This document shows positions 5,953-64,000 of a stretch of DNA of 64,000 nt, one piece after another. The notes under the pieces are model-generated. The model was not told the origin of the DNA. It searched no databases and saw only the letters and a program-made list of their open reading frames with translations. Location: the NCBI GenBank assembly GCA_038230895.1, contig JBBRMJ010000002.1:12531-76530 (forward strand), in the 5' to 3' direction. This stretch comes from Candidatus Saccharimonadales bacterium (GTDB taxonomy: Bacteria > Patescibacteriota > Saccharimonadia > Saccharimonadales > UBA4665). Each line of letters opens with the position of its first letter. Position 1 is the stretch's first letter. Made by a program: the position numbers and the translations under genes.

Positions 5953-7731
5953 ATGAAGCAGGATCAGATTCGGAATTTTTGTATTATTGCCCATATTGAT
6001 CATGGCAAATCGACCTTGGCCGATCGGCTGTTGGAATTGACGCATACCGTCGAAAAGCGTGATATGAAAGCCCAGATTCTGGATCGTATGGATTTGGAGC
6101 GCGAGAAGGGAATTACTATCAAGCTGGCGCCAGTACGTATGGAATATGAGGGTTATGAATTGAACCTTATCGATACGCCTGGCCATGTTGATTTTAGTTA
6201 TGAAGTGTCGCGGAGTTTGGAGGCTTGCGAGGGCGCCTTACTGATTGTCGACGCAACCCAAGGCATTCAGGCACAGACATTGGCCAATGTCTATCTGGCG
6301 ATGGCCGCGGAACTGACGATTATCCCTGTCCTCAACAAAATTGATTTGCCAGCCGCTGATGTCACTCGAGTCAGCGCTGAAGTCGTCAGTTTACTTGGTT
6401 GTAAGCCAGAAGACATCCTGCACATCAGCGCCAAGACGGGGCAAGGCGTGGAAGCCGTGTTGGAGCGCATTGTGGTTGACGTCCCGCCGCCTAAAAGCTC
6501 GGCCTTACCTGAGACCCGGGCACTGATCTTCGACAGCTATTACGATGATTATCGTGGTGTCATATTATATGTGAGAGTTTTCGACGGTCATATTGCGCGC
6601 GGCGCTCAGATCAAAATGATGGCAACCAGCGCTCATGGCCTGGCACTGGAAGTCGGGGCTTTAACACCGGAAATGACACCCAAAACCAACTTAGAGCCGG
6701 GCGAAATTGGCTACGTTGTCACTAACCTGAAGTCAACCCGTGAAGCCAAAGTCGGCGACACCATTACCCTGACTACAGCCGCCGCCAGCGAACCATTACC
6801 GGGTTATCGCAATGTTCGGCCTTTCGTCTATGCAGGCTTCTTTCCGGAGAGTAATGAGTATTACCAGGAGCTGAAAGATGCAATTGAAAAGCTGAGTCTG
6901 AGCGATTCGGCGCTGCAGTTTGAGCCGGAGAACTCACCGGTGCTTGGGTTCGGCGTCCGGATTGGCTTCCTCGGTTTGCTGCATATGGATATTGTCCGTG
7001 AACGGCTGGAACGGGAATATAACCTCGAGCTTGTCGTCACCAATCCATCGACTGATTATCAAGTTGTGCTACTGAGCGGTGAGGAATTGGATATCAAGAG
7101 TGCTTCGACATTACCTGACCCGGCGAAAATTCAGGATATACGAGAACCTTGGATCAAGGGCGAGATTATTGTACCGCAGGACTATGTCGGCCCGGTAATC
7201 CAATTGATTTCGGCCAAGCGTGGTCTTCAGACCAATCTGAGCTATGTTGAAGATCGGGCAGTGGTTAGTTTCGAAGCACCGCTTGCCAATTTGCTGACCG
7301 ATTTTTATGACCAGCTCAAGAGCATCACCAGCGGCTACGGCTCCTTTAATTACGAACTGGATGATTACCGCATTGAAGACTTAGTCCGTCTGGATTTCTA
7401 TGTGGCCAATGAAATTGTCGGCGCGCTCAGCGTTATGGTCCATCGCAGTGAAGCTGATCGGTTGGGTCGTGAAACGGTCACCAAGCTGAAGGATGTAATC
7501 CCACGCCAGAACTTCCAAGTCGCGCTGCAAGCCGCCATCGGTGGTCGTTTCATCGCCCGCGAAGACATCAGTGCCTATCGTAAAGACGTCACAACTGGAC
7601 TCTACGGTGGTGATGTGTCGCGTAAGAAGAAAGTTTTAGCCAAGCAGGCCAAGGGAAAGAAGCGTATGAAACGTTTTGGCAAAGTTGATATACCAGCCGA
7701 GGCTTTCACGGTCATGTTGAAGCGTGATTAA
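5953..7731 (+). CDS. lepA: Translation elongation factor 4 (LepA)
   Basis: IRNFCIIAHIDHGKSTLADRLL (G1), DTPGHVDF (G3), NKIDL (G4). The C-terminal region matches the LepA-specific domain (...GKKRMKRFGKVDIP). Confidence 0.97.
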   Translation: MKQDQIRNFCIIAHIDHGKSTLADRLLELTHTVEKRDMKAQILDRMDLEREKGITIKLAPVRMEYEGYELNLIDTPGHVDFSYEVSRSLEACEGALLIVDATQGIQAQTLANVYLAMAAELTIIPVLNKIDLPAADVTRVSAEVVSLLGCKPEDILHISAKTGQGVEAVLERIVVDVPPPKSSALPETRALIFDSYYDDYRGVILYVRVFDGHIARGAQIKMMATSAHGLALEVGALTPEMTPKTNLEPGEIGYVVTNLKSTREAKVGDTITLTTAAASEPLPGYRNVRPFVYAGFFPESNEYYQELKDAIEKLSLSDSALQFEPENSPVLGFGVRIGFLGLLHMDIVRERLEREYNLELVVTNPSTDYQVVLLSGEELDIKSASTLPDPAKIQDIREPWIKGEIIVPQDYVGPVIQLISAKRGLQTNLSYVEDRAVVSFEAPLANLLTDFYDQLKSITSGYGSFNYELDDYRIEDLVRLDFYVANEIVGALSVMVHRSEADRLGRETVTKLKDVIPRQNFQVALQAAIGGRFIAREDISAYRKDVTTGLYGGDVSRKKKVLAKQAKGKKRMKRFGKVDIPAEAFTVMLKRD

Positions 7732-7770
7732 TGAAGCATTGTGGCAGCGCTACTCGCTGGTATACAATGA

Positions 7771-8436
7771 ATGCACGTAAACTATACAAAAATGAAATAC
7801 GTGTCAGCAACCCCTAATCTCGACAGCCGTCTCTTCGGCTTACTGCTTTTGCCGTCTTGGTTCAGTGCCGCTGTTGCCGTCATCGTCGGCCTGCTGGTAG
7901 GGATTGGCACAGTCGTCTTGACGCACTATCAAAGCAGCACCTTTCGACTCGAACTACTAAACACCCAGGTCAGCCAGCCCACAGCCTACCAGTCGCTCAC
8001 GGATCGTATACTGTCAAATAATTTCATCAGCAACCTACCGTTGTTATTATTCTGGACACTGGTTGGGTTAGTGGTCTATCTGTTTACTTCGAATATTTTG
8101 GCGGCTATTCGGAGTACTGCCGAACTGAAAAGTGAACTGGAGTATGTACATGTCAATCGTCACAGTTTGCTGGTGACTGCTGCAGAGCATCTACTCGTAC
8201 GCTTAGTTGTATTGGTGATTTGGGTTTTCTTTATCGTATTTTTCTTCAATCATGTCCTCCCCTATTGTGTCGCGGCCGCCTTGGCCGGCTCGGGGTCTCA
8301 AGGTAGTTTGCTGAATGTTAGCTATGTCTTGCTGTCCATTGTGATCATGACTGCTGCGGTACATCTGCACACTATTTTCTTCCGTCTACTTTTGTTAAGA
8401 CCACGGATTTTTTCGTCAGCGGTGTACATCGATTGA
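7771..8436 (+). CDS. Hypothetical membrane protein
   Basis: 221 aa with about 5 strongly hydrophobic segments and no recognisable motif. Confidence 0.55.
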   Translation: MHVNYTKMKYVSATPNLDSRLFGLLLLPSWFSAAVAVIVGLLVGIGTVVLTHYQSSTFRLELLNTQVSQPTAYQSLTDRILSNNFISNLPLLLFWTLVGLVVYLFTSNILAAIRSTAELKSELEYVHVNRHSLLVTAAEHLLVRLVVLVIWVFFIVFFFNHVLPYCVAAALAGSGSQGSLLNVSYVLLSIVIMTAAVHLHTIFFRLLLLRPRIFSSAVYID

Positions 8437-8482
8437 GCATTGAAACATTGATTTACCCCTGTAAAAGTGCTATAAATAGACT

Positions 8483-9217
8483 ATGAATGACCTCGTACGC
8501 ATTGCTGATTTTCAAAAAGCTCTCCAGGGCTACCATCTGTCAAAGCAAGCGCTACAAAGTCTGTCTCAAACCGAGCTTGTGTTACTTGTCGCGCCGACAG
8601 CAACAGGCCGCAACACGATTATCCGCCAGCTGCTCAAAACTGGCGATTATCACTTCGTTGTATCCGATACCACTCGTCTACCGCGTGTGAATGATGGCGT
8701 TTTGGAACAAAATGGCCGAGAATACTGGTTTCGTACCGAGCTGGAAGTCCTCAGTGACATCCAGCAGGGCAAATATCTGGAGGCCGCTATTATTCATGAC
8801 CAGCAGGTCTCAGGCATAAGCGTTCGTGAATTGGAAAAAGCTCGTGACGAAGGTAAGATTGCCGTCACCGATACCGAAGTACTTGGCGCCGAAAATGCCA
8901 TTAAATACAAGCCAGATACGATTGCGTTATTCGTTTTGCCGCCAAGTTTTGATGAATGGCAGCGACGCCTCAGACAACGTGGCACTATGGATGACATTGA
9001 ATTTAATCGCCGTATGACCAGTGCCTACAAAGAATTTGCGATGGCCTTGCAGCACGAACACTACCACTTCATCATTAACGACTCTATCGAACATTCAGTG
9101 CAGCAGATCAATGAAATCGCCAAACTTGGCACTATCGACCCAGAATCACAGCAGCAAGGTCGCGCCTTGGCGGAGCAGCTTTTATTGGCGACACAAGCAT
9201 TTCTGGGCACGGTTTGA
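8483..9217 (+). CDS. Guanylate-kinase-like protein with a non-canonical P-loop
   Basis: GK-family motifs are present: SDTTRLPR, EYWF, FVLPPS..RRLRQRG. The P-loop position reads APTATGRNT instead of GxxGxGK[ST]. Confidence 0.6.
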   Translation: MNDLVRIADFQKALQGYHLSKQALQSLSQTELVLLVAPTATGRNTIIRQLLKTGDYHFVVSDTTRLPRVNDGVLEQNGREYWFRTELEVLSDIQQGKYLEAAIIHDQQVSGISVRELEKARDEGKIAVTDTEVLGAENAIKYKPDTIALFVLPPSFDEWQRRLRQRGTMDDIEFNRRMTSAYKEFAMALQHEHYHFIINDSIEHSVQQINEIAKLGTIDPESQQQGRALAEQLLLATQAFLGTV

Positions 9218-9287: not shown

Positions 9288-11699
9288 GTGAGTACAGTAA
9301 TGATATTGTCGGCTCCAAAGCGTTATAAATCGGTCTATCTTGTCGGTCTATGTTTTGTACTAGCGCTGACATTTTTGGTTGTACACCCCCAGAAAGCATC
9401 AGCCGCCTGCGCTGCCCAAGACACTTCTCGTGGTCAGGTCACCAGTACCTTCAGCGTACCAAGTACCGGCAGCTACCGAGTATGGAGTCGTATCCTCGCA
9501 CCTGACACGACGAATAATTCTTATGTTTTAGAAATTGATGGCACTACCTGTGGCGTTGTGGTCGGTGGGAGCACTACGTTCCCAGCCAACACTTGGACCT
9601 GGGTAGATTATCAAGGCGGCACAGCCAGCAGCAAGATTAATGTAACCCTGAGTGCCGGCGCGCACACCATGACTTTGATTGGGCGCGAAGATAATGTTGA
9701 GCTGGACCGTGTAATTTTCACCACTGATACCACTTGCGTGCCGACCGGAACAGGTGATAATTGTGCCAACCCTCCCGATACGACCAATCCAACCGTCTCA
9801 ATCACCGCACCAACTGCTGGGTCAACGGTCAAGAATACGGTTACTGTCCAGAGTACTGCAGCGGATGATGTCGCGCTCGCTAAAGTTGAGTTCTACATCG
9901 ATGGTACACTGGTAGCATCAGATACCACCACGCCATATAACTATACGTTCGATACCACAACGGTGAGCAATGGTTCGCATACGATTCTGGCCAAAGCCTA
10001 TGACACCAGCCAAAATACTGCTTCTGCCACCGTGGCCGTCAACGTCAACAATCCTGCGGTCTGTACGCCGGGTAGTAGCACACTACCGACAACACCGGGC
10101 AATGTGACTAGCAGTAGTACCTACACCCAGATTACGCTCAACTGGTCTCCGAGCACCGGTAGCCCCGGCTGTACCATCACTAATTACAAGGTCTTCAGAG
10201 GTGGTGCGTTGATTGCGACCCTCGGCAATGTCACAACGTATACCGATAGCGGCTTAATAGCAGGCAATAGCTATAACTACAACATCCAGGCCGTCGATAG
10301 TGGCCCCAACAACTCGGCCCAGAGTGCGCTATCCAGCTTCTCGACAACCACGGATAACCTCGCTGCTAATCCAGTGACTGGCGTAACCGCCACCGCCAAC
10401 GGCGCAGCTCGTGTCGACCTGAGTTGGGCCGCTGCAACTGACCTTCCGAACCCCGGTGGCGTTGGTATCGCCGGCTACAATATCTATCGCAATGGTGCCA
10501 GCACGCCAACCTATCAAGTGACTGGTGCGAACACGACTAGCTATGCCGACACCAATGTCTCCGCCAGTACCAAGTACACCTATACTATTACGTCAGTGGA
10601 TAAAGCTAGCAATGAGAGTGCTCCAAGCGCTAGTGTCAGCGCTACCACGGCGGCGCCTACCTGTAGCGGTACGCCATCCGTGCCAACAGGGCTTGTGGCG
10701 ACTGGCAGAACGATCAGCACTATCACGTTTGGTTGGACAGCAAGTACGGCTAGCGCTGGTTGCACCTTAAGCGGTTACCATGTCTACCGTGGCGGCACGT
10801 TCGTGGCTGATGTCACCAGCGGTCTCAGCTTCACTGACACTGGCTTGAATCCAAATACCGGCTACAGCTACACCGTCAAAGCGTTTGATACCAGCGCACA
10901 CACCTCAGCTGCCTCGACCACGCTCAGTGCGTCTACGTCGGCTGATACGAGCGCTCCAAGCGCACCAGGCAGTGTTGCGGCAGTCGCCATCAGTAGTTCC
11001 AATGTTAATCTGACCTGGACGGCCAGCACTGATAATATCGCGGTCACTGGCTACAACATCTACCGTGGCGGTGTGGTTATATCGACAGTTGGTGGCAGCA
11101 TCCTAACCTACAGTGATACTTCCCTTGTCGGTAACACAGACTATGTCTATCAAGTCAGTGCAATCGATGGTGCTATCAATGAAAGCGCCAAAGTCACGGC
11201 CACGCCAAATCCTGTCCACACCCCAACGTCTATCGACAAAACACCCCCGAGCACCCCGACGAACCCACAAACCCCTGTCATTGCTTCGCAATCTGCCAAG
11301 GTCACCTGGACACCAGCCACTGATAATGTCGGTGTGGTGGGCTACCATGTCTATATCAAAGGCATCCTAGATACGTTTGATGGCGATACGACCACCGCAA
11401 GCTTTACAGCTCGTTGCTTAGCACCAAATATTCCTTACGCCATAACTGTTAAGGCCTTCGATGCCGCTGGTAACATAAGTTCCACGGCTATGAACGTGAG
11501 CCTTACAACTCTTGGTGGTGGCTTCGCCGGTGACTTTGACTGCTCGACACACGTTGACTTCACTGACCTCACGACCTTAGCACGCAACTGGGTCCTAACT
11601 GCTCCAGCTCGATTCCTGCCAACTGACGGTGATGCCTCTGGAGATGCTATTATTGATTTCACTGACTTAACTTCTCTCGCCAGAAACTGGGGTAAATAA
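9288..11699 (+). CDS. Secreted multidomain surface protein: signal peptide, Cys-containing CBM-like domain, Ig-like domain, five FN3 domains, C-terminal dockerin-like double repeat
   Basis: Signal-like LVGLCFVLALTFLVVHPQKASA. Five repeats of the FN3 pattern (..L.W....G..GY.[IV]YR.G......T.Y.D.GL...T.Y.Y.V.A.D..GN.S). The C-terminus carries GDFDCSTHVDFTDLTTLARNW and GDASGDAIIDFTDLTSLARNW. The track start is a GTG; an ATG at 9300 is an alternative. Confidence 0.8.
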   Translation: MSTVMILSAPKRYKSVYLVGLCFVLALTFLVVHPQKASAACAAQDTSRGQVTSTFSVPSTGSYRVWSRILAPDTTNNSYVLEIDGTTCGVVVGGSTTFPANTWTWVDYQGGTASSKINVTLSAGAHTMTLIGREDNVELDRVIFTTDTTCVPTGTGDNCANPPDTTNPTVSITAPTAGSTVKNTVTVQSTAADDVALAKVEFYIDGTLVASDTTTPYNYTFDTTTVSNGSHTILAKAYDTSQNTASATVAVNVNNPAVCTPGSSTLPTTPGNVTSSSTYTQITLNWSPSTGSPGCTITNYKVFRGGALIATLGNVTTYTDSGLIAGNSYNYNIQAVDSGPNNSAQSALSSFSTTTDNLAANPVTGVTATANGAARVDLSWAAATDLPNPGGVGIAGYNIYRNGASTPTYQVTGANTTSYADTNVSASTKYTYTITSVDKASNESAPSASVSATTAAPTCSGTPSVPTGLVATGRTISTITFGWTASTASAGCTLSGYHVYRGGTFVADVTSGLSFTDTGLNPNTGYSYTVKAFDTSAHTSAASTTLSASTSADTSAPSAPGSVAAVAISSSNVNLTWTASTDNIAVTGYNIYRGGVVISTVGGSILTYSDTSLVGNTDYVYQVSAIDGAINESAKVTATPNPVHTPTSIDKTPPSTPTNPQTPVIASQSAKVTWTPATDNVGVVGYHVYIKGILDTFDGDTTTASFTARCLAPNIPYAITVKAFDAAGNISSTAMNVSLTTLGGGFAGDFDCSTHVDFTDLTTLARNWVLTAPARFLPTDGDASGDAIIDFTDLTSLARNWGK

Positions 11700-13069
11700 T
11701 GAAACGTATTATGAAACGCAGTTCAAACTACGCTAAGTTAGGCCTCATCGTGTTGGTAGTCGCAGTTGCGGGATTAAGTCTAAGCCACATTACTTTTGCG
11801 GCTACTGGTAGTCTGACTTTTAGCCCTGGTAGTGGTTCTCATAACGTTGGCGATACATTTACCGTGACAGTCATAGAAAATAGCGGGACTGATAGTGCGG
11901 TATCAGTCAAAGCTATTGTTGACTATCCAGCGAGTTTATTACGCTTCGACGGCGATACTGTCGTTGCGCCTTTTACGTTTAATCCTGCCAGCACCGACAC
12001 TGCAAGCGGAGGTGTTATTAGTATTCAACGTGCCAGCCTAAGCGGCACTGGTTATACAGGCGCACAGACAGTTTCAACCATGACCTTCACTGTTTTGGCC
12101 GCCGGCACGGCAACGCTAAGCTTTGAGAATTCGTCAGTTATTGCCGACTATAATACCGGCAACAATGTCTTAGTGAGTAAACCGAGCGCTACGTACACCT
12201 TAAGTGTTCCGCCACCAGCCTCTCCAGTTATCTCGGCCTTCACCGCTACGCCAAGTTCAGTAAGCTCAGGCGGTACCAGTGTCCTGGCGTGGGCCAGCAG
12301 TAATGTCGTCAGCGGTGGCTGCAGTATCCCATCAACTTCAGTAACGGCCGGTGATCCGAGTGGTAGCCTGACAACACCAGCCCTGACTAGCTCTACCACC
12401 TACACGCTGACCTGTAAGAATAGTGCCAATGTCCCTACCAGTAAAGCTGTTACTGTATCGGTCACCACGCCGCCTCCAGGCGGCTCGGGCTCTGGTTCTG
12501 GATCGAGTGGTTCGACCAAGTCAACTAGCGTCAAAGTCGGTGATGTGACAGTGCCAAACAACGGCAATGTCGCGGTTTCCACCCCAGTTGGTGTCCAGCC
12601 AGCCACGATTCAGACCGAAGGTGTCAGTAAGGTCGAGTACTACCTCAATGGTAAACTGGTCGACACCGAGACCAAGCCACCATTTACCTACAAGGTCGAT
12701 ACCACTAAACTTGATAACGGTACCTACAAATTGACAAGCAAAACCTTCTTTAGTAACGGTTCTACCAAGCAAACCACCCAGAATCTTCAAGTGAAGAATA
12801 CTGCCAAGAAATCGAACACCGCTGGAATCGGACTATCACTGTTCATTCTGGCAGCCATCATTGGCGGCATCATCCTCATCCAGCGTCATCGTGGTCGACT
12901 CCAGCCCAGCTATGGTGCAATGGGCGAAAGTAAGGTGGTGACGAGCGACACGGCACCGCAAGTTGTCGCACCAATCACTCCTTTGCCTCAACCGACGGCC
13001 ACCAACCTGAACGCGCCACAGCCCGGTACAGTTATCGGCCAGACTACCAAGCCTGACGATAAGTTATAG
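11699..13069 (+). CDS. Membrane-anchored surface protein: signal peptide, cohesin-like domain, Ig-like domains, G/S linker, C-terminal TM anchor
   Basis: Its ATG overlaps the stop of the upstream gene (TAATG). The N-terminus GSLTFSPGSGSHNVGDTFTVTVIENSG...ATLSFENSSVI is cohesin-like. VSKVEYYLNGKLVDTETKPPFTYKVDT... is Ig-like. The TM segment is AGIGLSLFILAAIIGGIILI, followed by a basic stop-transfer QRHRGR. Confidence 0.75.
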   Translation: MKRIMKRSSNYAKLGLIVLVVAVAGLSLSHITFAATGSLTFSPGSGSHNVGDTFTVTVIENSGTDSAVSVKAIVDYPASLLRFDGDTVVAPFTFNPASTDTASGGVISIQRASLSGTGYTGAQTVSTMTFTVLAAGTATLSFENSSVIADYNTGNNVLVSKPSATYTLSVPPPASPVISAFTATPSSVSSGGTSVLAWASSNVVSGGCSIPSTSVTAGDPSGSLTTPALTSSTTYTLTCKNSANVPTSKAVTVSVTTPPPGGSGSGSGSSGSTKSTSVKVGDVTVPNNGNVAVSTPVGVQPATIQTEGVSKVEYYLNGKLVDTETKPPFTYKVDTTKLDNGTYKLTSKTFFSNGSTKQTTQNLQVKNTAKKSNTAGIGLSLFILAAIIGGIILIQRHRGRLQPSYGAMGESKVVTSDTAPQVVAPITPLPQPTATNLNAPQPGTVIGQTTKPDDKL

Positions 13070-13107: not shown

Positions 13108-13136
13108 TTGTCAGCCCGGACAGTACAATCTATACT
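13108..13136 (+). promoter_or_regulatory. Candidate sigma70-type promoter for the third surface-protein gene
   Basis: TTGTCA (13108-13113), a 17 nt spacer, then TATACT (13131-13136), ending 25 nt upstream of the ATG at 13162. Confidence 0.5.
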
Positions 13137-13161: not shown

Positions 13162-14298
13162 ATGAAACAAACACGACAACTAATCTTCCATCGAAGACGA
13201 ACTTTGCTGTTGGCTGTCATGGTGTTCACAGCCATGTTGCTGGGCCCGTGGCAATCAGGCCGTGCCGCAGCGGCCTGCGCTGCGCAAGATACCTCACGCG
13301 GTCAAGTCTCAGCCAGTTTTAGCATTCCACTGACGGGCAGCTATCGGGTATGGAGCCGCATCAAAGCACCAGACAGCACCAATAACTCCTATATCCTAGA
13401 AATTGATGGTACAACCTGCGGTGTGGTCGTTGGCGACAGCGCCACCGCTGCCAACACCTGGACATGGGTCAACTACAAGACGGGTAACAGTGGCAGCCCG
13501 ATTGATATTAATTTGGCGAGCGGTAGCCATTCGCTGACGGCGATTGGTCGAGAAGATGCCGTTTCGATTGACCGAGTCATCTTCACCGCAGATACTAGCT
13601 GCGTTCCCTCTGGCACTGGCGACAATTGCGCCATCGTTATTACGACACCAACCGGTGGTGGTCAACCTGGTGGCAGTACCGGCGCGACCACCACAGGCGC
13701 GACCACGACAACCGCCAGCAGTAGCGGTGGTACGGTCACCGTCCACGCTTCGTCACAGCCACTGACGGTTAGCGGTGACACCAACCTGGTCATCGCGCCA
13801 CCCAGTAGCGATAATCAGGGAGCAAGTCTCGCTAAAGTTGAATATTACATCGACAACAAACTGGTCGACACCGAGACCACAGCGCCCTACACCTACAAGG
13901 TCAATACCAAGATCCTTCAGAGCGGAGTCCATACATTGACCAGCAAAGCCTTCTACGCCGATGGTACGAGCAAATCAACCACCCAAACGTTAACCGTCAA
14001 AAATACTGCCAAGAAAACATCCAACCAGACCGGTGCACTTGGCGTCAGTTTGTTGCTCATTGCGGCGATTTTTGTTGGTCTGTCAATCATCCAGCGTCGT
14101 CGTGGCGGGCTACGGCTCCACGGCGTCACGCTTATACCTGGCAATCACCCAGTGGTGGAAGATGTGACTCTGGCTATGCGCAGCTCGGATAGACCAGGTG
14201 ATGTGGTGCCGGTGCCGACTCAGGCGCCAGCGCCTGGCTCGGTCATCGAGTATCATCCGACCCCGGATGAAACGCAGGGGCCAAAGCCAACACTATAG
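13162..14298 (+). CDS. Membrane-anchored surface protein: signal peptide, CBM-like domain (paralogous to 9288 gene), T/G-rich linker, Ig-like domain and TM anchor (paralogous to 11699 gene)
   Basis: AACAAQDTSRGQVSASFSIPLTGSYRVWSRIKAPDSTNNSYILEIDGTTCGVVVG... aligns with the N-terminal domain of the 9288 gene. LAKVEYYIDNKLVDTETTAPYTYKVNT...VKNTAKK + TM + IQRRRG aligns with the C-terminus of the 11699 gene. The track start at 13108 is TTG; the ATG at 13162 is preferred because of the promoter position. Confidence 0.8.
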   Translation: MKQTRQLIFHRRRTLLLAVMVFTAMLLGPWQSGRAAAACAAQDTSRGQVSASFSIPLTGSYRVWSRIKAPDSTNNSYILEIDGTTCGVVVGDSATAANTWTWVNYKTGNSGSPIDINLASGSHSLTAIGREDAVSIDRVIFTADTSCVPSGTGDNCAIVITTPTGGGQPGGSTGATTTGATTTTASSSGGTVTVHASSQPLTVSGDTNLVIAPPSSDNQGASLAKVEYYIDNKLVDTETTAPYTYKVNTKILQSGVHTLTSKAFYADGTSKSTTQTLTVKNTAKKTSNQTGALGVSLLLIAAIFVGLSIIQRRRGGLRLHGVTLIPGNHPVVEDVTLAMRSSDRPGDVVPVPTQAPAPGSVIEYHPTPDETQGPKPTL

Positions 14299-15843: not shown

Positions 15844-17085
15844 ATGGCTATACACACTCAAAACAATCTTCGAGCGTTATTATTTGTCTTGATTTTCGTG
15901 TCGGTCGGTACTGCAATTCTATTTGTTACGCATGCTGCCACAAATACCTCGTCTGTTGAAACCGAAAGTGGTACCTTGGCAGGTACTGCGTCTATCGTAA
16001 GTGATTCGAGCGCTTCGGGCGCTCAGGCCATACGTTTTGGGACTGCTCCTCTGGGTAGCGGTGTGCTACCGATTCCGAGCCCCCTGAGCTCAAATTGGGT
16101 GGCACCGAGCGGCAACTACACCATGCCGGCGCAAACGGTGAATGTTTCGGGTACCGTAACCGTTAATTTGACTGCCGCTACCATCACCGGCACGACTGGC
16201 TATCTCTTCAGCTTGACGCCAGGGAGTAATTTGACGATTATCGGCGGTACATTATCAGGCACGATTCAGGGCTTAGTGCAGGATAATATCGTTGACGGTG
16301 CAACAGCCACTGTCTCTATAGCCGGTACAAAGATGACCAACGTACGTACCGTTGTCTTCGCCAAGACTCAAGGTGGCCCCGTCTCCATTACGCTTACGAA
16401 TGTCGTTGCGACGGGCTTAGGCTCCGGCGTCCGCGCCACCTCTGACTACATGGATATTGAAAACTGCACCTTAACCGGCGGTGGTGTACCGCCTACGGGA
16501 AACCCGGCTGGTGTTCATTCATTGGATGATAACGCTGGCAACATAGATGTCCCAGGCTCATTTTTAAAAGTCTTTAATAGCACAATTACTGGGTACACAT
16601 CGACTGGTTTCCAAGGTGATAGCGTCTTGGGAGAAACGAGGGTGCATTCAGCCGACATCGAGAATAATGTCCTTGGTCACAACAGCGACAGTGGCGGCAT
16701 CGATTCTAAAATGCACAGTGTCATCGTCAAGAACAATACCATCTATAGTGATGGCGGCCGTGCCATCTCGAGCCACTACGGTACGTTGACGGCGAGTGGA
16801 AACACCATTTACCAAGTCGCTACTTCAAATAACGGTGTCGGCAAGGCGTATCAGGGTACTGGTACTTTGATCGTCAGTAATGATGTCGTTGTGCTGACAC
16901 CTGGTGCGAATCTAGCTATAGCCGACGTCGTCCTATCGCCGGGCTCCGGCCCTCCTGCCAGTTATCCTCGGGTCGGTAACCTGACTCTTACGCATATAAC
17001 CAATCAGGCGGGAACTGTCCTGCTCGGCCCGACGAAGGTTAATCCAGCCGGTGGCTTCACACCAACCATCACGGTTAATCCATAA
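15844..17085 (+). CDS. Secreted right-handed beta-helix (pectate-lyase-fold, PbH1-repeat) protein
   Basis: N-terminal signal/anchor LRALLFVLIFVSVGTAILFVTHAA. Repeated beta-helix rungs are visible (IENCTLTGGG, IENNVLGHNSDSGGID, VKNNTIYSDGGRAI, ASGNTIY). 413 aa. Confidence 0.65.
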   Translation: MAIHTQNNLRALLFVLIFVSVGTAILFVTHAATNTSSVETESGTLAGTASIVSDSSASGAQAIRFGTAPLGSGVLPIPSPLSSNWVAPSGNYTMPAQTVNVSGTVTVNLTAATITGTTGYLFSLTPGSNLTIIGGTLSGTIQGLVQDNIVDGATATVSIAGTKMTNVRTVVFAKTQGGPVSITLTNVVATGLGSGVRATSDYMDIENCTLTGGGVPPTGNPAGVHSLDDNAGNIDVPGSFLKVFNSTITGYTSTGFQGDSVLGETRVHSADIENNVLGHNSDSGGIDSKMHSVIVKNNTIYSDGGRAISSHYGTLTASGNTIYQVATSNNGVGKAYQGTGTLIVSNDVVVLTPGANLAIADVVLSPGSGPPASYPRVGNLTLTHITNQAGTVLLGPTKVNPAGGFTPTITVNP

Positions 17086-26528: not shown

Positions 26529-26604
26529 TGGAGGGCCCAGCGGGACTCGAACCCGCGACACGAGGCTTAAAAGGCCTCTGCTCTACCAGCTGAGCTATGG
26601 GCCC
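26529..26604 (-). tRNA. tRNA-Lys (anticodon UUU), CCA encoded
   Basis: Hand-folded cloverleaf on the minus strand: GGGCCCA-TA-GCTC-AGCTGGTA-GAGC-A-GAGGC-CTTTTAA-GCCTC-GTGTC-GCGGG-TTCGAGT-CCCGC-TGGGCCC-T-CCA. Confidence 0.92.
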
Positions 26605-55814: not shown

Positions 55815-55892
<78 letters not shown>

Positions 55893-56068: not shown

Positions 56069-56145
56069 CGGTGTGTGGCGTAGTTTGGTTGCGCGCGTCG
56101 TTCGGGACGACGAGGTCGTGAGTTCAAATCTCGCCACCCCGACCA
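56069..56145 (+). tRNA. tRNA-Pro (anticodon CGG), CCA encoded, one acceptor-stem mismatch
   Basis: Hand fold: CGGTGTG-TG-GCGT-AGTTTGGTT-GCGC-G-CGTCG-TTCGGGA-CGACG-AGGTC-GTGAG-TTCAAAT-CTCGC-CACCCCG-A-CCA. Position 4:69 is U.C. Confidence 0.85.
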
Positions 56146-62954: not shown

Positions 62955-63031
62955 GGCGGACGTAGCTCAGTTGGTAGAGCGTCGGGTTGTGGTCTCGAAT
63001 GTCGCGGGTTCAAGCCCCGTCGTTCGCCCCA
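62955..63031 (+). tRNA. tRNA-His (anticodon GUG) with genome-encoded G-1 and CCA
   Basis: Hand fold: G(-1)-GCGGACG-TA-GCTC-AGTTGGTA-GAGC-G-TCGGG-TTGTGGT-CTCGA-ATGTC-GCGGG-TTCAAGC-CCCGT-CGTTCGC-C-CCA. G-1 pairs with C73. Confidence 0.9.
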
Positions 63032-63377: not shown

Positions 63378-64000
63378 TTATTTGCCTTTGACGGTAACTG
63401 AGATAGTCGCGGTGCTCGTATTGCCTGCTGCATCGTATGCGGTGGCGGTTAGCGTATGATGACCGTTCTTGACCGGTGAAGTGTCCCAACTTGCCCCCCA
63501 ACCATACGCATCCTGGCTAGTAGCGTCGCGGATAACAGTTGTTCCGTCACTTATGACGACACGGGTAACGCCGACATTATCAGCAGCATTGACGCTTATC
63601 AGAACTGTACCGTTAACACCTGATCCATCAGTGGGGTTTGTGAAGCTAATACTAGGCGCTGCCCTGTCAGTTACAGCATTCGAGACAGTCACTACGACAC
63701 TGCTGGCGCTGTGGTTGCCTGCCGCATCATAGGCCGTTGTTGTCAGTGTGTGGCTGCCATTCGTAGATTTCGTGGAGTCCCAGACGCTGCCCCAACCGTA
63801 GGTGCCTTGGCTGGTAGCATCATGGATAACGGTTGTTCCATCAGTGATGACGACTCGAGTTACGTTGACATTATCACTCGCGTTGACATTGACGGTAGCG
63901 CTGCCTGTCACGGTAGCGTCTGTTGTCGGGCTAGTGATGCTAACGGTTGGAGCGATCGTATCACCACCACCTGTGGATACTGTACCTGTGAAGGCGGCAT
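63378..64000 (-). CDS. Surface protein with tandem bacterial Ig-like domains; the N-terminal part lies beyond the right edge
   Basis: The frame stays open to the window end, so the track M at 63911 is internal. Two repeats of about 98 aa are present (VNASDNVNVTRVVITDGTTVIHDATSQGTYGWGSVWDSTKSTNGSHTLTTTAYDAAGN / VNAADNVGVTRVVISDGTTVIRDATSQDAYGWGASWDTSPVKNGHHTLTATAYDAAGN). They match the Ig type seen in the 9288 gene. Confidence 0.7.
   Translation of the reverse strand, partial: AAFTGTVSTGGGDTIAPTVSITSPTTDATVTGSATVNVNASDNVNVTRVVITDGTTVIHDATSQGTYGWGSVWDSTKSTNGSHTLTTTAYDAAGNHSASSVVVTVSNAVTDRAAPSISFTNPTDGSGVNGTVLISVNAADNVGVTRVVISDGTTVIRDATSQDAYGWGASWDTSPVKNGHHTLTATAYDAAGNTSTATISVTVKGK

Follow-up and report, generated by a model that had tools for sequence, protein, structure and literature searches.

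Two adjacent plus-strand open reading frames, ORF1 (9288..11699) and ORF2 (11699..13069), lie within a 64,000-nucleotide stretch of contig JBBRMJ010000002.1 from a Candidatus Saccharimonadales bacterium (hereafter the window, with coordinates counted from its first letter), and we consider here the case that their products form a cohesin-dockerin pair that displays a stalked protein on the cell surface. How Saccharibacteria and other bacteria of the candidate phyla radiation (CPR, or Patescibacteria) build their surfaces and grip their hosts is largely obscure, and ORF1 and ORF2 bear on that gap. An earlier note, made from the letters of the window, had proposed that ORF1 ends in a dockerin and that the next gene, starting on its stop codon, supplies a membrane-anchored cohesin. 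The overlap is as that note described it: the TAA of ORF1 (11697-11699) shares its final base with the ATG of ORF2 (11699-11701), giving a plus-strand TAATG (11697..11701; junction GGTAAATAATGAAACG), which suggests that translation of the two genes is coupled.

ORF1, the putative cargo, is 803 residues long in the open reading frame list, with a GTG start at 9288; the public gene call begins at the ATG at 9300, giving 799 residues, and this exact product is present in an NCBI-derived collection. Residues 1-38 (9288..9401, ending ...HPQKASA|ACAAQ) are presumably a signal peptide, as read by eye from the basic N-terminus, hydrophobic core and A-x-A motif. A beta-sandwich head with four cysteines follows (aa 39-164, 9402..9779), placed near carbohydrate-binding module families CBM6 and CBM35 by AlphaFold2 and Foldseek, and then a Big_7 bacterial immunoglobulin (Ig) domain (aa 168-233, 9789..9986; Pfam PF17957, E=1.4e-21, 77 bits). 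The stalk, at about aa 266-745 (10083..11522), consists of five FN3 domains, matched by Pfam fn3 in five stretches (E=6e-30), with boundaries that we set from motif positions, and the dockerin-like segment occupies aa 748-803 (11529..11696). No catalytic domain was found in ORF1 by Pfam and NCBIfam scans. A match to exoglucanase CbhB in NCBIfam scores 271 bits, where the cut-off is 1950, and is confined to the FN3 region; we rejected it.

ORF2, the putative anchor, encodes 456 residues, and its exact product is P0001 in the protein collection that we searched. It reads as a membrane-anchored protein of type I topology that carries one cohesin: a probable signal peptide (aa 1-34, 11699..11800, ending ..LSHITFA|ATGSL), a divergent cohesin domain (aa 35-172, 11801..12214), an unannotated Ig-like spacer (aa 176-258, 12224..12472; ..ISAFTATPSS..TYTLTCKN..), a membrane-proximal Big_7 Ig domain (aa 283-346, 12545..12736; PF17957, E=5e-10), and a transmembrane helix (aa 375-394, 12821..12880; AGIGLSLFILAAIIGGIILI). 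The helix, which like the signal peptide was read from the sequence, is followed by a basic QRHRGR stop-transfer stretch and then by a cytoplasmic tail, rich in Pro and Gln, whose roughly 60 residues run to 13066. The cohesin would then lie outside the cell. The membrane-proximal Big_7 domain is common to all orthologs and to ORF3, a neighboring gene discussed below; the spacer has no Pfam match at E<=10 and is missing from the orthologs P0002 and P0003. The signal peptide, single membrane anchor and basic stretch of ORF2, and the five FN3 domains of ORF1, had all been named in the earlier note and are present, although it missed both Big_7 domains, the one between head and FN3 stalk in ORF1 and the one next to the membrane in ORF2.

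Since each of the two modules, taken in isolation, falls below its Pfam threshold, the identification of both must rest on homology. The final 56 residues of ORF1 read GDFDCSTHVDFTDLTTLARNW / VLTAPARFLPTD / GDASGDAIIDFTDLTSLARNWGK and contain two tandem segments of about 22 residues, repeat 1 (DFDCSTHVDFTDLTTLARNW, 11532-11591) and repeat 2 (DASGDAIIDFTDLTSLARNW, 11631-11690), each made of a 12-residue EF-hand-like loop and then a helix (DFDCSTHVDFTD-LTTLARNW and DASGDAIIDFTD-LTSLARNW). Loop positions 1, 3, 5, 9 and 12 are D,D,S,D,D in the first repeat and D,S,D,D,D in the second. Dockerin_1 is the sole Pfam match of the isolated tail and covers positions 1-54 of the 57 in the profile. A hidden Markov model (HMM) of eight dockerins, that of the window among them, gives the ORF1 dockerin 85 bits, and BLASTP aligns this dockerin to the Pfam-significant dockerin of the ortholog locus L019. 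In five orthologous proteins the dockerin scores 28.1-39.1 bits for Dockerin_1, above the gathering score of 22.9, and aligns column for column with the ORF1 tail; the dockerins found upstream of ORF2 orthologs are progressively more canonical, as in L011 (GDINCDGKVNSTDLFTLLRNW...GDINGDIKVNSTDLFDMLRNW). By these comparisons, the C-terminus of ORF1 is a divergent but genuine dockerin, type-I-like in kind, as the earlier note had read from its repeats. A phmmer search of the Protein Data Bank (PDB) with the dockerin segment alone gave weak matches to 1ohz_B, 2y3n_B and 4fl4_A; the same single-sequence search matched a kelch-like designed protein, which we regard as spurious.

For residues 35-172 of ORF2, the top Pfam match is Cohesin, covering positions 3-125 of the 139 in the profile. 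A word-indexed search for homologs of the isolated cohesin segment returned no match at E<=1e-3; an exhaustive phmmer search of 1.84 billion cluster representatives with the same segment returned 1187 proteins at E<=1e-3, 79 of them at E<=1e-10. The close orthologs of ORF2 (P0002, P0003, P0006, P0008 and others) are 45-59% identical and match its architecture, and a homolog search with the family alignment, which gave at least 16 matches, added the orthologs P0166 and P0168. All of the source names that we found for the orthologs are "hypothetical protein". More distant relatives (P0004, P0005, P0007 and P0010; E=1.6e-27 to 5.7e-21) carry 2-4 cohesin copies that score 66-118 bits for Pfam Cohesin. 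Pfam-significant C-terminal dockerins are present in P0004, P0007 and P0010, and also in family members such as P0019. When the cohesin family profile, which includes the window's own sequence, was run against the PDB, the top matches were 2vn5 and 1g1k (E=9e-8), solved cohesins of clostridial type I systems.

We considered the possibility that the ORF2 domain is some other beta-sandwich, such as a chagasin-like Inhibitor_I42 domain or DUF11, with the ORF1 repeats serving as generic EF-hand-like calcium sites that stabilize the stalk. Inhibitor_I42 (E=1e-3) and DUF11 (E=0.046) do rank just after Cohesin in the Pfam results, and single-sequence phmmer of the cohesin segment against the PDB gave no cohesin. 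Both are weaker matches than Cohesin, however, and are contradicted by the relatives, as three of these that lie at E=1e-27 to 1e-24 from the ORF2 cohesin (P0004, P0005 and P0007) score 73-118 bits for Pfam Cohesin. In addition, 20 of the 21 PDB chains matched by the family profile belong to cellulosomal scaffoldin/cohesin or NagJ entries, the syntenic ortholog in L019 passes the Cohesin cut-off at 27.9 bits, and the five orthologous dockerins pass theirs. A different fold family for this domain is very unlikely on this evidence, and we take residues 35-172, on their homology, to be a divergent but genuine cohesin, as the earlier note had proposed. The PDB chain 7urp_A (160 residues, named "Ribonucleases G and E") matched the family profile at E=1.1e-7, as strongly as 2vn5 and 1g1k, and may be a cohesin-like domain that goes by the name of an unrelated protein.

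Some dockerins with near-identical recognition positions in their two repeats bind cohesin in either of two orientations. We compared the repeats in eight orthologous dockerins, the window's included. The helices of the two ORF1 repeats are 92% identical (11 of 12 positions), and over the set, helix positions 9-20 are 82% identical between the repeats within one protein, compared with 61% for the same repeat between orthologs. Positions 10/11, 14 and 17/18, which we take to be the cohesin-contact positions in studied dockerins, are identical in both ORF1 repeats and mostly co-vary in both repeats across the orthologs (FT/FT in the window, and SA/SA, GF/GF and ST/ST elsewhere), while loop positions 1, 3, 5, 9 and 12 hold D, N, S or T throughout. 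Judged from the alignment, this symmetry is as expected of a dockerin that would bind in either of two orientations and evolve with a private cohesin.

Several points weigh against reading ORF1 and ORF2 as a working pair. The isolated ORF1 tail scores 14.8 bits for Dockerin_1 (PF00404) at E=0.033, below the gathering score given above, and the isolated ORF2 segment scores 20.9 bits for Cohesin (PF00963; gathering score 24.1, E=4.4e-4); the two families that the earlier note had named for HMM searches each come out on top, although neither match reaches its gathering score. Whole-protein Pfam scans of ORF1 and ORF2 list neither a dockerin nor a cohesin at E<=1. In the ORF1 dockerin, Ser stands at loop position 5 in repeat 1 and at position 3 in repeat 2, Gly is missing from position 6, and the linker joining the repeats is longer by a 3-residue insertion, so that loss of calcium or cohesin binding is possible. 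Our AlphaFold model of ORF2, made from the single sequence, is of low confidence (predicted local distance difference test, pLDDT, 42), with an all-beta region of about 10 strands over aa 36-170 and a helix at 376-398. The likeness of the ORF1 head to known carbohydrate-binding modules is moderate by structure (TM-score about 0.5). Lastly, our counts of modules cover 64 kb of the genome, and competing cohesins or dockerins may exist elsewhere in it.

The low scores of the window modules beside their higher-scoring orthologs, the noncanonical calcium-loop residues and the linker insertion could also be taken to mean that the window copy is a decayed relic, whose modules are of dockerin and cohesin descent but have lost the ability to bind each other, with ORF1 secreted or otherwise held and ORF2 serving as an unrelated surface protein. 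Free decay would, however, be expected to erase the symmetry of the repeats, and this symmetry is kept, with oxygen-bearing ligands at all five loop positions. Both genes are also intact and retain the coupling overlap, and the ORF2 cohesin aligns over its full length to the family HMM at 130 bits (the set behind the HMM includes the window's cohesin). A relic is improbable on these grounds, and we would give it a small chance.

To judge whether the dockerin and the cohesin belong together, we considered the identities of nearby genes in nine ortholog clusters of ORF2 (L007, L008-L010, L011, L012, L013, L014-L016, L017, L018 and L019). An FN3-rich dockerin gene lies directly upstream of the cohesin-anchor gene, on the same strand, in all nine, so the co-occurrence of orthologous pairs that the earlier note had proposed as a check is borne out. 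A stop/start overlap (TAATG, ATGA or 8 nucleotides) is present in eight of the nine clusters, and L018 has a gap of 47 nucleotides. The genes flanking the pair vary between loci, save in L007 and L019, which are syntenic: the window and L007 have hrcA-grpE beside the pair, L019 has hrcA, L008 an ABC transporter gene, L017 the gene for ribosomal protein L19, and L014 a GH113 gene. L019 shares with the window a guanylate-kinase-like gene upstream of the pair and hrcA downstream, and its modules pass both Pfam cut-offs, with 28.1 bits for Dockerin_1 and the Cohesin score given above. The family HMMs found exactly one cohesin and one dockerin, adjacent, in each ortholog locus. Over all six frames of the window, the same HMMs found one dockerin and one cohesin, only in ORF1 and ORF2, and a regular-expression scan for the dockerin repeat motif found a pair only at the end of ORF1. 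These HMMs found neither module in a further six CPR loci, of which five are from Saccharibacteria and one is from a Paceibacterota genome; two of these six (L002 and L003) encode single-chain anchored surface proteins. At the level of sequence, we regard as established what the domains are, how the genes are arranged and that the pair is conserved.

The modules could still be real and not be partners, such that the ORF1 dockerin binds a cohesin encoded elsewhere, whether in its own genome, in the host or in a sibling cell, and the ORF2 cohesin takes other dockerin proteins (for example those made of a head plus a dockerin), the two genes sharing nothing more than an operon. The multi-cohesin relatives P0004, P0007 and P0010, with 2-4 cohesins and a dockerin, lend some weight to this possibility, as they suggest that Saccharimonadales can build multi-partner networks; P0007 itself is from a Saccharimonadales metagenome-assembled genome. 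Short proteins consisting of a head plus a dockerin exist as well, and 64 kb is a fraction of a genome. The conserved order of dockerin gene then cohesin gene, with the overlap in eight of the nine clusters and in mostly different surroundings, argues against it, as do the single module of each kind per locus and the variation of the dockerin recognition positions among orthologs, which suggests a specificity private to each pair. We consider it unlikely that the two genes merely share an operon. The preferred reading, that ORF1 and ORF2 together make up a minimal one-to-one cohesin-dockerin surface-display module of a probable Saccharibacterium, is in our judgment likely; binding of the ORF1 dockerin to the ORF2 cohesin, in a calcium-dependent manner, is a prediction from these comparisons.

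At the junction itself, the dockerin has a conserved ending, ..NWGK or ..NWGD, in which the codons TGGGGT form a G-rich, Shine-Dalgarno-like run 7-9 nucleotides before the overlapping ATG (11686-11701). A run of the TGGGGT type is found at the junction in the window, L008 and L011 and in none of the other orthologs. The NWGK/NWGD protein motif may double as a ribosome-binding site for the cohesin gene in these loci.

Just downstream of the pair is a single-chain paralog of its two ends. ORF3 (13162-14298, plus strand, with a probable ATG start at 13162) consists of a CBM-like head (13270-13641), a Gly/Thr linker, a Big_7 domain (13732-13941), a transmembrane helix (14032-14091) and a C-terminal tail. 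In tblastn comparisons, the N-terminal half of the protein matches the head and Big_7 domain of ORF1 at 47% identity, and the C-terminal half matches the Big_7 domain, transmembrane helix and tail of ORF2 at 45%. ORF3 joins an ORF1-type head to an ORF2-type anchor, so a gene-fusion (Rosetta-stone) argument can be made that the head belongs on this anchor. It appears from the sequence to have its own promoter, with a promoter-like site TTGTCA-17-TATACT (13108-13136, plus strand) matching at 10 of 12 positions. By their architecture, then, ORF3 and the ORF1-ORF2 pair read as hard-wired and plug-in versions of one display in the same genome. For the view that the window pair has decayed, ORF3 provides a further argument, in that it may already supply a directly anchored head and leave the split system redundant.

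The Ig-like spacer of ORF2 also recurs in single-chain proteins. One copy of this unit of about 80 residues is present in ORF2, and 4-5 copies occur in large Saccharibacteria surface proteins (L002 6732-9854; L003 6615-9695 and 9592-12816), which end, as ORF2 does, in Big_7, a transmembrane helix and a tail. The rough consensus is ..ISSFTA.P..v..G..S.LsW...N...C.v.P.....W.T..Lt..TtYTLTC.N.., and the unit looks like an undescribed domain family.

The head of ORF1 was modeled by AlphaFold2 from a 13-sequence alignment with high confidence (pLDDT 90.8, predicted template-modeling score 0.83). Nearly all of the top 50 Foldseek matches of this model in the PDB are CBM6, CBM35 or CBM36 modules or enzymes containing them, with probability 1.00 and TM-scores of 0.40-0.58, and the fold is the beta-jelly-roll of the CBM6/35/36 group, in agreement with the CBM-like head that the earlier note had described. 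The best PDB match of the head profile is 2wz8, a CBM35 (E=1e-3). Weak Pfam matches (E about 3e-3) were to CBM_35, CBM_6 and GH115_C, the last of these also matched by 6 of the 13 members of the head family (best E=2.7e-5). Because its scores for CBM_35 (18.2 bits, curated score 28) and CBM_6 (17.8 bits, curated score 28.9) are below the Pfam cut-offs, we call the head CBM6/35-like, a member of neither family. On the strength of the model it is probably a glycan-binding module. Proteins of about 200 residues (P0152-P0155, P0157 and P0161) consist of an ORF1-type head and a canonical dockerin, with nothing else.

Other loci carry other heads. In L017, a right-handed beta-helix head (Pfam-significant, 36.7 bits) sits on an FN3 stalk with a dockerin. 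The dockerin protein of L014 (1586 residues) has a large N-terminal region with a weak, sub-threshold GH1-like match (E=0.007), and the head region on the FN3 stalk and dockerin of L008 has no Pfam match. The finding that an FN3 stalk and dockerin carry differing heads in related loci suggests a display device of general use, and not one dedicated to adhesion. The earlier note had described an adhesion or display scaffold without a glycoside hydrolase, as opposed to a cellulosome. No glycoside hydrolase is present in the window and the features of a cellulosome are absent, ORF1 having no dockerin-borne glycoside hydrolase or lyase and ORF2 having one cohesin, the single one in the window, in place of a multi-cohesin scaffoldin. 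That description needs to be broadened in two respects, as the device is better described as one of display in general than as purely an adhesin, and the L014 relative does have its weak glycoside-hydrolase match. Directly downstream of the dockerin-cohesin pair in L014, on the opposite strand, is a GH113 gene (7364-9067, minus strand), which is present in L015 as well. Together with the GH1-like region of L014, this neighbor points tentatively to a connection with polysaccharide degradation in some lineages.

If the pair works as we propose, ORF1 and ORF2 would be co-transcribed and translationally coupled through the TAATG, and both would be exported by Sec. ORF2 would be retained in the membrane by its C-terminal helix, with its Big_7 domain, linker and Ig-like spacer holding the lone N-terminal cohesin off the cell. 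ORF1 would be released, and its dockerin, with two near-identical repeats of calcium loop and helix, would dock on the ORF2 cohesin. The outcome would be a CBM6/35-like glycan-binding head carried on the end of a stalk some six Ig-type domains long; in related loci other heads, the right-handed beta-helix among them, would be presented on an equivalent stalk and dockerin. A host-attachment role for the pair is speculative. A more ambitious version would have a plug-in display specific to the Saccharimonadales, in which each lineage combines a private, co-evolving cohesin-dockerin specificity with heads (lectin, beta-helix, hydrolase-like) that are swapped on a standard FN3 stalk, recognize or cut glycans of the host cell wall, and so help to determine host attachment and host range in these episymbionts; we regard this version as rather doubtful, and put it forward tentatively.

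Tethering of a dockerin protein to a single-cohesin, cell-bound anchor is already well established in the Firmicutes, and what is added here is the lineage and the context. The single-cohesin anchors of the cellulosome-producing Firmicutes include OlpA and OlpC of Clostridium thermocellum and ScaE of Ruminococcus flavefaciens. As in those systems, one cell-bound cohesin would capture one dockerin protein in a single-membrane bacterium, and the dockerin has two repeats with internal symmetry. ORF2, however, is anchored by a C-terminal transmembrane helix and a cytoplasmic tail rather than by S-layer homology (SLH) domains or a sortase LPXTG motif, for neither of which it has a match; in place of a glycoside hydrolase or scaffoldin, the cargo has a CBM-like, non-catalytic head on a stalk of Ig and FN3 domains; the genes for the two partners form a translationally coupled pair; and the organism is a probable Saccharibacterium, not a cellulolytic Firmicute.

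The type I complexes of Clostridium cellulolyticum and C. thermocellum (2vn5, 1g1k and 1ohz) supply the best matches, by sequence, of the cohesin family profile in the PDB, namely 2vn5 and 1g1k, and their dockerins share with ORF1 the duplicated 12-residue calcium loop and helix with near-identical recognition positions. Sequence identity to these complexes is nonetheless very low. The Ser-Thr positions of the C. thermocellum dockerin are Phe-Thr in ORF1, whose loops, unlike the clostridial type I loops, lack the usual Gly at position 6 and an Asp or Asn at one ligand position, and the window, unlike the clostridial type I systems, has neither a multi-cohesin scaffoldin nor an enzyme cargo. 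The NagJ cohesins of Clostridium perfringens (2ozn, 2jh2 and 2w1n), also among the matches of the family profile (E about 4e-4), provide a case of cohesin-dockerin pairing outside plant cell-wall degradation, which the present pair would resemble, although the C. perfringens modules join secreted toxins or glycosidases to one another, and here the pairing would be between an integral membrane anchor and a stalked lectin-like protein. Peer et al. in 2009 reportedly surveyed scattered cohesin and dockerin genes across bacteria and archaea.

Five of the six genome matches to ORF2 are Saccharibacteria or Saccharimonadales metagenome-assembled genomes, and the sixth is a Paceibacterota metagenome-assembled genome. 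In the papers found by full-text search, no cohesin-dockerin pair is described in Saccharibacteria or other CPR bacteria. A dockerin has been described, in the SEML1_0315 protein of the Saccharibacterium Southlakia epibionticum, which is essential by transposon sequencing and which its authors speculate targets host glycans; that paper names no cohesin partner for it (PMC10633639). By its description, SEML1_0315 resembles ORF1: it belongs to the envelope of a Saccharibacterium, has Ig/FN3-type domains and is reported to carry a dockerin. Its neighbors, unlike those of ORF1, are an opposite-strand hydrolase gene and a tRNA gene, with no cohesin-anchor gene. The scores of the ORF2 cohesin, just under the Pfam cut-off, imply that a partner can hide in a gene labeled "hypothetical protein", and a family-specific HMM could be used to re-annotate the relatives of this cohesin. 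ORF1 and ORF2 supply a cohesin partner that had been missing and unannotated, and with it a testable surface-display hypothesis for Saccharibacteria: the pair is a defined, predicted two-protein complex suited to binding tests, and the natural series of heads on a common stalk (lectin-like, beta-helix and possibly hydrolase-like) is open to ligand tests.

Elsewhere in the window, a 413-residue protein with a signal-type N-terminus is encoded just past hrcA-grpE (15844-17085, plus strand). It matches Beta_helix at E=1e-4 (22.4 bits, cut-off 25.9) and, unlike the beta-helix head of L017, has no dockerin. Four tRNA genes were found: Lys-TTT (26529-26604, minus strand), Pro-TGG and Pro-CGG, about 180 nucleotides apart (55815-55891 and 56069-56145, both plus strand), and His-GTG (62956-63031, plus strand). 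Apart from these tRNA genes, no Rfam family reached its gathering score within the window. Finally, two tandem Big_7-like segments are encoded on the minus strand at 63390-63989, running off the window end. They are 41-43% identical to the Big_7 region of ORF1 (tblastn E=3e-9 and 2e-11), a similarity that suggests another Big_7-containing surface protein at the window edge.

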